45,701 nt of DNA, from assembly GCA_003567955.1 (NCBI GenBank), contig PWYF01000095.1, positions 1 through 45,701 on the forward strand. Reading direction: 5' to 3'. Numbering within the stretch: the stretch's first letter is position 1; every line of letters starts with the position of its first letter. The stretch is from Thiotrichales bacterium (lineage in GTDB: Bacteria; Pseudomonadota; Gammaproteobacteria; UBA5335; SLRW01). The notes under the pieces are model-generated. The model made no database searches. It saw only the letters and a program-made list of their open reading frames with translations, and was not told the origin of the DNA. Below are positions 9,765 through 45,615 of the stretch, piece after piece. A program made the position numbers and the translations under genes.

Positions 9765-10577
9765 TTATTCCGTGTCCGTGCGTTCAGCCACCCAGGCCTC
9801 GAATTCGGCCGGTTCCTTGGCAATCACCACCACGGGCATGAAGGCGTGGCCGCGTCCGCACAATTCCGCGCACTGGCCACGGTAGATGCCGGGTTCCTCG
9901 ACATTGACCCACATTTCGTTGATGAAACCGGGGATCGCATCTTTCTTGAGCGCGAACTCGGGCACCCACCAGGCATGAATCACATCCCCGGCGGTCAGCA
10001 GCAGACGCACCCGGGTGTTGGTCGGAATCACCATGGGCTCATCCACATTGAGCAGATAGTACTCCACATCGAGCGGGCTCAGATCACTGCCAAGCTGATA
10101 GGCCCGGGTACTGTCGGCATCGAGGTTGCTGAAGAACTCAATGTCGTGATCAAGGTAGTCGTAGTGCCAGTTCCACTGATAGCCGGTGATCTTGACCGTC
10201 ATCTCAGCGCCACTGGTGTCTTCCATCTTGACCAGCGTGGCCGTGGCCGGAATCGCCACCGCCACCAGAATCATGAAGGGAATCACCGTCCAGATAATTT
10301 CCACGGAGGTGCTTTCATGCCATTTGGCCGGCTCTGCCCCGCGCGACTTGCGGTGCAGGATGATCGAGGCAAGCATAATGATGAACACCAGCGCGCCAAT
10401 CACTGCACAGATAATCAACATCATCATGTGCAGCCCGTACACCTCACGGCTGATCTCGGTCACGCCCTCCGGCATGTTCATGGGCGGCCATCCCGCCGCC
10501 ATGGCGCTGCTGCTCAGCAGCAATGCAAAAGCGGCCAGCAGGCCCGCCCCGGCGAACTTGAGTCGGTTCGTCGACAT
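9765..10577 (-). CDS. coxB: Cytochrome c oxidase subunit II (CuA), without a fused cytochrome c domain
   Basis: Signal peptide, two TM helices and a CuA site (HAWWVPEF ... CAELCGRGHAFM). The 270-aa length leaves no room for a C-terminal CxxCH domain. Confidence 0.9.
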   Translation of the reverse strand: MSTNRLKFAGAGLLAAFALLLSSSAMAAGWPPMNMPEGVTEISREVYGLHMMMLIICAVIGALVFIIMLASIILHRKSRGAEPAKWHESTSVEIIWTVIPFMILVAVAIPATATLVKMEDTSGAEMTVKITGYQWNWHYDYLDHDIEFFSNLDADSTRAYQLGSDLSPLDVEYYLLNVDEPMVIPTNTRVRLLLTAGDVIHAWWVPEFALKKDAIPGFINEMWVNVEEPGIYRGQCAELCGRGHAFMPVVVIAKEPAEFEAWVAERTDTE

Positions 10578-44805: not shown

Positions 44806-44840
44806 TTGCCGCCCGTTCAGTCATGAACCGGAACAGCACA

Positions 44841-44859
44841 GCGCCCGTAGCTCAGCTGG
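44841..44859 (+). pseudogene. tRNA-Arg 5' fragment (nt 1-19 only)
   Basis: GCGCCCGTAGCTCAGCTGG is identical to the first 19 nt of the intact tRNA at 45165. The 7-nt 5' flank CAGCACA is also shared. Confidence 0.85.
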
Positions 44860-44988
44860 GTGAGTGGCGACCGAACAGCCGGTGGCTGTTCGCAGCGCCA
44901 CGAACGACCGGACAGGACGTCCGGGCCGGGACCACCGGAAGCCGGCATGCGCTGCGCCAGGGAGGGCAGGCACCAGACAATTTGTATA

Positions 44989-45133
44989 GCGCCCGTAGCT
45001 CAGCTGGATAGAGTGTCGGCCTCCGAAGCCGAAGGTCGCAGGTTCGACAAATCCGCCATGGACGAGCGGATTTGAACCGCCGAAGGCGGGCCCCGAAGGG
45101 GTGAGGCCCATGGATGGGCCGAATAATCCTGCC
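44989..45133 (+). pseudogene. tRNA-Arg(CCG)-derived copy: nt 1-58 intact, T-loop interrupted by a 77-nt element, 3' acceptor strand missing
   Basis: 44989-45047 is identical to the intact tRNA through GGTTCGA. Element copy E1 follows (45048-45124), then AATCCTGCC (T-loop end plus T-stem 3' strand). The acceptor CGGGCGCGCCA is replaced by CCGGCAGGAT, which forms a local hairpin ATCCTGC-CCCG-GCAGGAT. Confidence 0.8.
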
Positions 45134-45164
45134 CCGGCAGGATGAGAACAATCCGATCAGCACA

Positions 45165-45241
45165 GCGCCCGTAGCTCAGCTGGATAGAGTGTCGGCCTCC
45201 GAAGCCGAAGGTCGCAGGTTCGAATCCTGCCGGGCGCGCCA
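45165..45241 (+). tRNA. tRNA-Arg, anticodon CCG, 77 nt with encoded CCA
   Basis: Hand-folded cloverleaf: acceptor GCGCCCG/CGGGCGC, D-arm GCTC/GAGT, anticodon stem TCGGC/GCCGA with loop CTCCGAA, variable AGGTC, T-arm GCAGG-TTCGAAT-CCTGC, discriminator G, CCA. Confidence 0.95.
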
Positions 45242-45254
45242 AACACCAAGACGA

Positions 45255-45280
45255 AGCCCGCCAAGTCTGCGGGCTTTTTT
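45255..45280 (+). terminator. Rho-independent terminator after tRNA-Arg
   Basis: GCCCGC-CAAGTCT-GCGGGC followed by TTTTTT. Confidence 0.8.
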
Positions 45281-45297
45281 ATACCTGACAGGAGCCA

Positions 45298-45430
45298 CGA
45301 TTCGAACCTGCGACGTTTCAATCAATCCAGGTTCGACAAAATCGCAGGATAGCGATTTTGAACCGCCGACAGGCGGACCCCGAAGGGGCGAGGCACACGG
45401 ATGTGCCGAGTAATCCTGCCGGGCGCGCCA
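45298..45430 (+). other. Composite unit: inverted T-arm copy + AGGTTCGA + element copy E2 (45337-45411) + tRNA-Arg 3' end with CCA
   Basis: 45298-45314 (CGATTCGAACCTGCGAC) is the reverse complement of tRNA nt 46-62 with one mismatch. 45329-45336 is AGGTTCGA, followed by 75-nt E2. 45412-45430 (AATCCTGCCGGGCGCGCCA) is identical to the tRNA 3' end. Confidence 0.8.
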
Positions 45431-45442
45431 TATTTATTAATA

Positions 45443-45467
45443 AGCCCGCCAGCACAGCGGGCTTTTT
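45443..45467 (+). terminator. Second terminator, paralogous to the one at 45255
   Basis: GCCCGC-CAGCACA-GCGGGC followed by TTTTT. It has the same stem as the first terminator with a different loop. Confidence 0.75.
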
Positions 45468-45485
45468 CATGCTTGACGGGATCCA

Positions 45486-45595
45486 CGATTCGAAGCTGCG
45501 ACGTTTCAATCAAATCAGGTTCGACAAAATCGCAGGATAGCGATTTTGAACCGCCGACAGGCGGACCCCGAAGGGGCGAGGCCCATGGACGGGAC
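45486..45595 (+). other. Second composite unit (188-bp period): inverted T-arm copy + AGGTTCGA + element copy E3, diverging in the last hairpin
   Basis: 45486-45583 aligns almost base-for-base with 45298-45396. After GCGAGGC the sequence departs and runs into REP-like motif copy C. No tRNA 3' end is present. Confidence 0.75.
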
Positions 45596-45615
45596 CAGGG
45601 AAACGCTGGTAAAGC

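Follow-up and report, generated by a model that had tools for sequence, protein, structure and literature searches.

RtT, the repeat RNA of the tyrT operon of Escherichia coli (Rfam RF00391), is the type example of the repeats treated here. In E. coli K-12 its units comprise an inverted T-arm copy, AAGGTTCGA, a hairpin module and AATCCTTCCCCCACCACCA; one such unit lies between tyrT and tyrV, and three more come after tyrV. The annotated non-coding RNA rttR begins 8 nt after tyrV and extends to the CCA of the first unit. Three further systems are considered here. The T1-T2 terminator cassette of rrnB is carried by very many cloning vectors. Insertions of about 70 bp within ERIC/IRU repeats were reportedly noticed in 1997 by Sharp and, in the same year, by Cromie, Collins and Leach (Mol Microbiol 24). 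The small RNA family AaHKsRNA22 (Aggregatibacter sRNA 22, RF02902) was reportedly defined from RNA-seq of Pasteurellaceae. In this study we analysed a 45,701-nucleotide stretch of DNA from a Thiotrichales bacterium (contig PWYF01000095.1, positions 1 to 45,701, forward strand), which is referred to as the window. It contains three copies, E1, E2 and E3, of an element with four hairpins (H1 to H4), all within sequence derived from tRNA-Arg(CCG). We found that E1-E3 are divergent members of an RtT-type family of core modules of about 76 nt located at stable-RNA genes. A literature search gave no paper uniting RtT, the rrnB T1-T2 spacer, the ERIC inserts and AaHKsRNA22 or giving a mechanism; most subscription journals lay outside the search, and older work is possible.

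The module was followed by a pattern scan of 185,579 species-representative genomes, which gave at least 120 loci. Counts below refer to the 130 matches among those listed, copy numbers and taxonomic range are lower bounds, and the loci that were fetched carry our own numbers (L001 and so on). From 126 distinct copies, E. coli K-12 sequences excluded, we built the covariance model R1. The model scored E1 with 82.8 bits (E 5.8e-21), E2 with 81.7 bits (E 1.2e-20) and E3 with 63.0 bits, the E-values ranging from about 1e-20 to 1e-15. Since in addition shuffled sequence would contain the 31-nt core pattern 0.00 times by expectation, the three copies are not due to chance. The same model recognised the four tyrT/tyrV/rttR units of K-12, on which it had not been trained, over their full length (30.9-33.7 bits, E about 1e-7). 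It also matched the rrnB T1-T2 spacer with 48.2 bits (E 2.4e-11; L132 334-413, which is E. coli K-12 NC_000913.3 about 4171833-4171912), and a copy in an ERIC repeat of E. coli B18271 (L001) with 93.7 bits (E 6.7e-24). These two were likewise outside the training set, most members of which are, like L001, embedded in ERIC.

The Rfam models themselves gave weaker matches within the window. E2, E1 and E3 aligned to model positions 1-101 of RF02902 with 23.2, 22.3 and 15.3 bits (gathering threshold 39.8), and RF00391 matched the E2 repeat unit (45279-45430) with 17.7 bits and both 45300-45430 and 45121-45241 with 18 bits (gathering threshold 45). Siblings from other genomes passed: a copy from Yersinia aldovae (L034 61-158) reached 41.6 bits against RF02902, and tRNA-Gln-linked units of uncultured Gammaproteobacteria reached 55.8 and 55.7 bits (L046) and 48.1 bits (L013) against RF00391, for which the K-12 units score 133-137 bits. 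The preliminary description of this locus had recognised no known family in the element. With two Rfam families matched below threshold by the window copies and above threshold by their siblings, and with rttR and the rrnB spacer found by R1, its claim of novelty is largely refuted; its structural claim is upheld.

All features of the array lie on the forward strand. The only intact tRNA-Arg(CCG) gene (45165-45241) was called by ARAGORN and matched the Rfam tRNA model with 72 bits; it is free of the module, as had been noted before. E1 (45048-45125) is a complete module upstream of this gene. It begins directly after ...GCAGGTTCGA, the end of a 59-nt copy of the tRNA from nt 1 to A58 (44989-45047; repeat D3, identical to the gene, partial tRNA match of 28.8 bits). 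It is followed by ATCCTGCC, read as the T-loop remainder and T-stem 3' strand (45126-45133), and the acceptor 3' strand is missing. E2 (45337-45412), likewise complete, begins after CCAGGTTCGA, a direct copy of the T-stem 5' strand and of T-loop nt 54-58 (45327-45336). An exact copy of the 19-nt tRNA 3' end, AATCCTGCCGGGCGCGCCA, follows at 45412-45430 (repeat D7, 100% identical to 45223-45241), and its first A is common with E2. E3 (45525 to about 45598) begins after TCAGGTTCGA, with CAGGTTCGA, the direct T-arm 5' half, at 45516-45524. It ends the array and is truncated or decayed: H4 has non-standard pairs and has lost its 3' strand, the terminal CGARTA is missing, and the tRNA 3' flank is absent as well (repeat D2, 72% identity). 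All three copies are preceded by (G/C/T)CAGGTTCGA, and E1 and E2 are followed by A/ATCCTGCC. Counted along the tRNA, the insertion thus lies between A58 and A59 with a 1-nt (A) ambiguity, and the five-nt T-loop motif TTCGA is kept. The earlier observation that the element splits T-loop sequence is therefore confirmed. The copies were also located correctly; their limits required revision, E1 ending at 45125, E2 at 45412, and E3 being truncated.

E2 and E3 are parts of a 188-bp tandem repeat (45254-45410 versus 45442-45598, 89% identical), and are therefore not independent. In each 188-bp unit a terminator-like hairpin is followed by an inverted copy of the T-arm, by its direct 5' half and by the module; unit 1 additionally has the 19-nt tRNA 3' end. 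The terminator-like hairpin of unit 1, with its U-tract, stands directly 3' of the tRNA (45253-45283; -15 kcal/mol, z = -3.85), and was not listed by a simple terminator scan. The second such hairpin with U-tract is found at 45442-45469 (-13.8 kcal/mol, z = -3.5). The inverted T-arm copy of unit 1 (45296-45317; inverted repeat I1, 22 nt, 91% complementary to 45208-45229) forms the 5' strand of a hairpin, P2, in the fold of the unit, and its counterpart in unit 2, recognised by sequence and by the 188-bp tandem repeat (D1), lies at 45484-45505. The locus is best read as a decaying tandem array that arose by duplication and unequal recombination between tRNA-derived repeats.

This organisation corresponds to that of RtT and rttR in several respects. 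In both, tandem units on the same strand directly follow a tRNA gene, and each unit is made up of an inverted T-arm copy, the T-stem 5' strand with TTCGA, the module and the exact 19-nt tRNA 3' end with CCA. In the window, unit 1 is complete in this sense and unit 2 is truncated, without the tRNA 3' end. The insertion point at 58/59 and the tandem G·A motif are common to both; the motif was reported in a re-analysis of the Rfam RtT alignment (bioRxiv 10.1101/2020.02.04.933952). The differences are that the host in the window is tRNA-Arg(CCG) and in E. coli tRNA-Tyr, that H1 of the window is a long CAAA...UUUG hairpin and H3 has CCCC/GGGG against CCC/GGG in E. coli, that window units carry a terminator-like hairpin and U-tract which E. 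coli units are without, and that the window holds an additional upstream copy, E1, within a nearly full-length tRNA copy. The repeat period is 188 bp in the window, and that of E. coli rttR we take to be 178 bp. For the tyrT-rttR-tpr region of E. coli, a mobilome-sequencing preprint reports that several stresses raise the coverage of exonuclease-resistant DNA (bioRxiv 10.1101/2024.07.17.603846), which would agree with excision of circles from the tandem units.

In the rrnB spacer the module splits a second 5S 3' end (gagtagga/module/actgccaggcatcaaat, slashes marking the junctions here and below), the real end, gagtaggga/actgccaggcatcaaat, lying 150 nt upstream. Of 5,426 complete E. coli genomes, 3,983 contain copies of this rrnB T1-T2 type, at about two places each. 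In H1, CAAATCCGC...GCGGATTTG, the K-12 copy and E1 have the same stem strands, and the order of parts is alike: a stable-RNA gene, a terminator, the module in a copy of the gene's own RNA 3' end and a second terminator. It differs in its host, which is the 5S rRNA 3' end (GAGTAGGA/.../ACTGCCAGGCAT) and not a tRNA T-loop, and in an H4 closed by GGCGGGC...GCCCGCC ATAA. AaHKsRNA22 agrees with the window copies in the order of the four hairpins and in the junctions ACAAAAcgC..GcgUUUUGAAC..CCCCaaAGGGGCGAG..CGAGUA, and differs in that the window copies score below the threshold of its model. The ERIC/IRU inserts contain the same module, at two fixed ERIC sites in 44 of the 130 matches listed. Their host is a palindromic miniature inverted-repeat transposable element without a CCA-bearing 3' end, and their spread in the genome is by the ERIC that carries the module. 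The window copies are not at ERIC sites, as their flanks are tRNA sequence.

Each of E1, E2 and E3 folds into the same four hairpins, as had been proposed, with free energies of -40.4 kcal/mol (z -4.2), -36.5 kcal/mol (z -7.4) and -34.4 kcal/mol (z -4.8). The module can be written on one strand as GA/C-H1-G AAC H2 G CCCC-GNA-GGGG Y-GA-G(H4)C-GA-R UA/A, and comparison of filled with empty sites sets the limits of the element at C...GARTA. The compensatory changes in H1 and H4 between E1 and E2 are present as first stated, and when more copies were aligned the covariation was overwhelmingly upheld, on 126 copies (MAFFT alignment A1) and on 139 model-found copies fitted to R1. Standard pairs filled 95.1% of the paired cells in A1 against 75.1% after shuffling, and 97.0% against 72.5% in the model-fitted alignment. 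The covariation score was 0.539 in A1 (0.177 shuffled) and 0.62 in the model-fitted alignment (0.17-0.18 in shuffles), the observed values being reached by none of 500 shuffles, and slid registers of A1 paired at most 48.7%. In the 139-copy alignment 17 of the 19 pairs showed double changes. The invariance of CCCC/GGGG in H3 was imposed on A1 by the search pattern; among the 139 model-found copies it was almost fully kept.

H4 is extended across a tandem G·A/A·G by a pair between the Y before GAG and the R after CGA. In A1, where both positions were left free by the search pattern, this pair was CG 66 times, UA 58 times, UG twice and never unpaired. A pair G68-Y80 proposed by RNAalifold was replaced by Y80-R106, which covaries perfectly. 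On the forward strand G·U pairs outnumbered A·C pairs by about 70 to 8, so that the given strand is the folding one. Five short junction segments were kept from Enterobacterales to one member of the Zetaproteobacteria (Mariprofundaceae). As one RNA, the E2 unit has a predicted fold of -63.5 kcal/mol (z = -4.5), in which the leader and the tRNA-like 3' strand form a 9-bp helix with mismatches, P1, the inverted and direct T-arm copies form P2, the module hairpins follow and a ...CGCGCCA tail is free. The clean leader, CCGGCAGGAT, is found upstream of the intact tRNA and not in the E2 unit. In Gln- and Ser-type units the leader can form a P1 helix of 8-15 bp with the tRNA-like 3' strand, which resembles an acceptor/T-stem and leaves the CCA tail free.

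The flanks of 117 copies gave the logo NGA/module/AYS, with G in 76%, A in 75%, then A in 83%, Y in 90% and S in 88%. Empty and filled ERIC copies within the same genomes differ exactly by C...GARTA, and at the filled and empty sites compared (ERIC, yeiS-preT, rrnB) we found neither terminal inverted repeats nor a target duplication. The yeiS-preT spacer of E. coli (L129 2495-2577, L130, L131) exists in three states: without ERIC, with ERIC only, and with ERIC and module, the last in 643 of 5,426 genomes. The filled junction there has two extra C residues compared with the empty ERIC. The T-loop motif as the sole target was rejected, as it is absent from the ERIC and 5S contexts. From the rule NGA/AYS the antisense orientation of the copies at tRNA-Phe genes can be understood: the T-loop TTCGATT does not contain GA/A in sense, and the antisense site GGA/ATC is used. 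Spread to new sites would be rare and would proceed by precise insertion at 5'-NGA/AYS-3', through an enzyme or through microhomology conversion between near-universal T-loops. Since a T-loop module is flanked by the near-universal GGTTCGA and ATCC, short-patch conversion could copy it into another T-loop with no dedicated enzyme. Such conversion does not explain the ERIC and 5S sites.

Nearly all matches listed came from Gammaproteobacteria (Enterobacterales, Thiotrichales, Chromatiales, Steroidobacteraceae, Salinisphaera and Alteromonas); one came from Mariprofundaceae (Zetaproteobacteria), and two (2/130) are probable chance matches. By context, 25 of the 130 lay at the ERIC repeat centre and 19 at the second fixed ERIC site, 25 were in a T-loop context in the orientation of the window, and 12 were in tRNA-Phe 3'-end copies in the opposite orientation. 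The other 47 were in 5S 3'-end copies, beside 5S genes, in other repeat families or at unique sites. The approximately 25 T-loop copies among the matches listed follow, on the same strand and at a distance of 75-120 nt, a gene for tRNA-Gln(UUG), Gln(CUG), Thr, Glu, Ser, Arg(ACG) or Asn. Their 3' flank mostly equals the cognate tRNA 3' end over 15-18 nt, the exceptions being L013 (5 nt) and L086 (2 nt). The module reads in sense in every 5S context and in every tRNA context other than Phe. In the tRNA-Phe copies of Enterobacterales the module is antisense, behind a terminator, and the tRNA-Phe 3'-end copy is split at 59/60 (for example L048 4879-4956, downstream of tRNA-Phe in Klebsiella pneumoniae ATCC 13883; L064 and L110 have three tandem units each). 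The phe tRNA genes are known hot spots for genomic-island insertion. The T-loop context on which the preliminary description was based thus recurs beside seven further tRNA species and beside tRNA-Tyr of E. coli; as a general rule for the element it does not hold, given the ERIC, 5S and antisense tRNA-Phe copies. Because the recurrence is on the same strand and mostly with cognate flanks, two of the explanations offered at that time, homing to T-loops and an RNA co-transcribed with the tRNA, are both live.

Viral contigs gave 6 matches in 2.9 million, in ERIC, T-loop-type or host-like contexts, and in the phage and plasmid collections there was no meaningful match. A phage or plasmid origin was rejected on these grounds. 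Some single loci deserve description. A dispersed repeat (gcagagcaaggcgc.../module/acaaccgcagtgtacaagggagtacatgagga) hosts the module on at least four contigs of one uncultured Thiotrichales genome (L005, L047, L059, L094), which means that a host repeat other than ERIC also carries it. Double occupancy was seen in Yersinia aldovae (L034 64-227), with modules back to back at two GA/A sites of one 5S 3'-end copy, and in Brenneria populi (L008 3729-3939), with modules at both sites of one ERIC. At L102 one flank of the module is the left end of ERIC and the other is centre-right sequence of ERIC, which looks like a deletion between two such modules.

We consider it probable, on balance, that the element is a portable, strand-specific structured RNA module which sits on tRNA-like scaffolds and works as RNA. 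Read-through transcripts from the tRNA promoter would fold into the closing helix P1, the hairpin P2 and the module, and the tRNA-like ...CCA end would supply tRNA 3'-maturation signals. With these signals a discrete, stable by-product RNA could be released, as is annotated for E. coli RttR. The module would act as a portable recognition domain, its contact surface being likely the invariant junction nucleotides and, in the window, the GGA loops on H1 and H4. RtT RNAs were detected and found to be regulated in RNA-seq of K. pneumoniae (PMC4147364). Relative to co-directional flanking open reading frames the orientation was sense 40 times and antisense 16 times, in a rough count of non-independent loci.

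Several observations weigh against a module that works as RNA. The window copies lie below both Rfam gathering thresholds, and the P1 helix is absent from Thr- and Arg(ACG)-type units. Terminator-like hairpins with U-tracts stand between the tRNA and E2 and again after E2, so that co-transcription of tRNA and module would need read-through, and no sigma-70-like promoter was found in a promoter scan. At pheV of K. pneumoniae a terminator-like hairpin also separates the tRNA from the module unit, and the antisense tRNA-Phe modules behind a terminator are a case that the simple model of a tRNA by-product leaves uncovered. Finally, single-stranded DNA also supports stable hairpins, G·T wobbles, C-GNA-G triloops and Y-GA-R tandem mismatches, and the covariation of the hairpins is compatible with a folded single DNA strand as well.

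A wider proposal, which we put forward tentatively, is that the four-hairpin module represents an unnamed portable class that inserts precisely at GA/AY in stable-RNA-like hairpins by a mechanism not described so far and yields processed tRNA-like RNAs. RtT, the rrnB spacer, the ERIC inserts and AaHKsRNA22 would then be one mobile superfamily ranging from Gamma- to Zetaproteobacteria. Its sites would be the tRNA T-loop at 58/59, the 5S 3' region and ERIC (apical hairpin regions). As candidate mechanisms an RNA-mediated route, an unrecognised single-strand DNA enzyme or T-loop microhomology conversion may be named, and the decoy copies of tRNA and 5S 3' ends would become stable processed small RNAs bearing the conserved recognition domain.

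Doubtful, in our judgement, is that the module is a non-autonomous miniature DNA transposon, whose hairpins are recognised in trans as single-stranded DNA (by HUH, IS200/IS605- or REP/RAYT-like enzymes, for example) and whose RNA is functionless. The tRNA, 5S and ERIC sequences would be hairpin-rich GA/AY targets, in which insertions survive only in dispensable pseudo-copies. Much of the insertion behaviour fits: it is precise, without inverted repeats or target duplication, it follows the oriented target motif NGA/AYS, which also accounts for the antisense tRNA-Phe orientation, and presence and absence vary within E. coli. Both ends of the module are hairpins, one ERIC (L008) and one 5S copy (L034) each have two sites occupied, and strand asymmetry and GNA triloops suit folded single-stranded DNA. 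The likeness to IS200/IS605-derived and REP/RAYT elements extends to the lack of terminal inverted repeats and duplication, to oriented insertion by a short motif and to strand-specific hairpins that tolerate G·T. However, the ends of IS200/IS605 use guide sequences, for which the module has no room, as H1 starts at its first nucleotide. It further differs from these elements by its four conserved hairpins and junctions and by its low copy number per genome. The conservation of four hairpins and five junctions from Enterobacterales to Mariprofundaceae is more constraint than transposon ends need, and each context has its own module subfamily, from which the movement of the module alone looks ancient and rare. 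The module is almost absent from plasmids and phages, and no obvious replication-strand bias appeared in a rough count on a very small sample of complete genomes. No partner transposase or autonomous element was seen in about 1 Mb of fetched loci, among which no search aimed at split ends was made, and we know of no cognate transposase.

It is also conceivable, with still lower probability, that the module, or at least its window subfamily, is a portable binding unit for CsrA/RsmA, and that arrays downstream of tRNAs are small sponges. The H1 and H4 loops of E1, E2 and E3 all present GGA, and with a spacing of about 45 nt a single CsrA dimer could span the two. The loop sequences of E1 are cAUGGAc (H1) and cAUGGAUg (H4); cAGGAUa is found in E2 and E3, and E2 in addition has ACACGGAUGU in H4, which agrees at 9 of 10 positions with ACARGGAUGU, the consensus for CsrA from systematic evolution of ligands by exponential enrichment. 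Over the family the H1 loops contained GGA in 31% and the H4 loops in 42% of cases against an expected 9-10%, a three- to four-fold enrichment, and the H2 loops in 1%; because the counted sequences are related, the enrichment is inflated. An expanded module of an uncultured gammaproteobacterium (L071 2633-2806), which adjoins a normal-sized sister unit, has gained additional hairpins inside H1 and H3 (ACGGAUGU, AAGGAUGG, CAUGGAUGU, GCAGGAGC), nearly all of them GGA-looped, and so appears to resemble a growing CsrA/RsmA-type sponge. GGA-bearing hairpin loops, two per window module, and tandem units are also what the window has in common with the CsrB/RsmZ sponges. In contrast to these sponges, most members of the family, including the E. 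coli rttR, Thr and Arg(ACG) types, are without GGA in one or both loops (both loops have it in 26% of members), there is no dedicated promoter, the scaffold is tRNA-derived, and CsrA binding is here putative. As judged by titles and abstracts, no paper that mentions CsrA and rttR reports binding. Since GGA is missing in most members it does not define the family, and CsrA binding is a side hypothesis.

The third explanation offered in the preliminary description, a conserved piece of an attachment arm, has to be regarded as very improbable. The repeats would be scars of integrative elements that used the T-loop of tRNA-Arg. Such elements do classically leave direct repeats of a tRNA 3' end behind the intact gene, as seen here in D7, their crossover typically falls in the T-arm, and one viral-contig match (L124) is a T-loop-type unit near the contig end. 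Yet ERIC repeats, copies of the 5S 3' end, the rrnB T1-T2 spacer and unique intergenic sites all contain the identical module, and the six matches to viral contigs and the lack of meaningful ones in the phage and plasmid collections speak against integrative elements as carriers. The module lies inside the T-loop identity segment and not beside it, and its hairpins covary, which arm sites for protein binding do not need. The left neighbours of the array are the rep helicase and a cytochrome c, and the right side is beyond the window. This explanation is largely refuted. A reading as an intron or intervening sequence, which a functional tRNA would lose after transcription, is refuted for this locus and has next to no probability: position 58/59 leaves the 5-nt T-loop motif intact and the T-stem halves can close the domain in the predicted fold, but no interrupted copy is a complete tRNA (E1 is without the acceptor 3' strand, E2 and E3 without everything 5' of the T-stem), ARAGORN calls the uninterrupted gene only, no Rfam intron family matches at E <=10, and the module also occurs in non-tRNA contexts.

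The remaining parts of the array lie upstream of the copies or beside them. A duplicate of the tRNA leader (15 nt) with tRNA-Arg nt 1-19, an orphan 5' fragment, is found at 44826-44859 (repeat D5, 91% identical to 45150-45183). It is followed by a GC-rich insert of 129 nt (44860-44988, fold z = -2.7), which interrupts the D-loop after GCTCAGCTGG. This insert was not matched by R1 and has no copy among the fetched loci; it holds GUGAG(UGGCG...CGCCA)CGAAC, in which the Y-GA-G(stem)C-GA-R motif known from the closure of H4 recurs. Between E1 and the intact gene an RtT-type leader, CCGGCAGGATGAGAAC, is located at 45134-45149, 15 nt upstream of the tRNA. This leader repeats the T-loop, T-stem and acceptor 3' region in inverted and mutated form (inverted repeat I4, 17 nt, 88% complementary to 45218-45234). 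The leader GGCAGGATGAGAACC recurs in the tRNA-Gln-linked units L009 and L046, and a close variant, GGCGGGATGAGAACC, in L118. The leader CCCGGCAGGATGAGAAC of the intact tRNA-Arg is complementary to the T-loop, T-stem and acceptor 3' strand of its own tRNA (45218-45234) and, judged by this complementarity, could compete with cloverleaf folding in the precursor. The window as a whole is a chromosome segment of 62% GC with genes for rep helicase and cytochrome oxidase; to the left, rep helicase and a cytochrome c lie closest. A scan of the window with R1 found E1-E3 only; a weak full-length match at 9765-9841 (-) (16.5 bits, E 0.006), at the 3' end of a 270-aa open reading frame, is probably noise.

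A few other candidates were rejected. BoxC, a repeat of E. coli described as a purine/pyrimidine triplex-forming element, differs from the module (PMC4666352). The leader sequence GGAUGAG-(stem)-CGAC resembles CUGAUGAG-(stem II)-CGAAAC of the hammerhead ribozyme; the essential C3, U4 and A14 are absent, and no Rfam ribozyme matched at E <=10. A tRNA or tRNA-like gene on the minus strand was suggested by GCGGATTTGAACCGC, which reads as a reversed T-arm; this sequence is H1 with the GAAC junction, and ARAGORN finds nothing there.

The module family is widespread and has long been present in sequenced genomes, and members are already in Rfam as RtT and AaHKsRNA22. What is gained is that one module and one insertion rule are common to the tRNA-Arg copies of the window, E. 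coli RtT, the rrnB spacer, the ERIC inserts and the Aggregatibacter small RNA. The covariation is on a par with that of well-established functional RNAs, and the module adjoins essential stable-RNA genes. This gives a handle on two old puzzles, the purpose of the RtT RNA and the persistence of tRNA and 5S 3'-end fragments behind their genes, and it points to a possible new route of spread for small structured elements. For annotation, the module accounts for tRNA pseudo-fragments and for tandem repeats behind tRNA genes in many Gammaproteobacteria.

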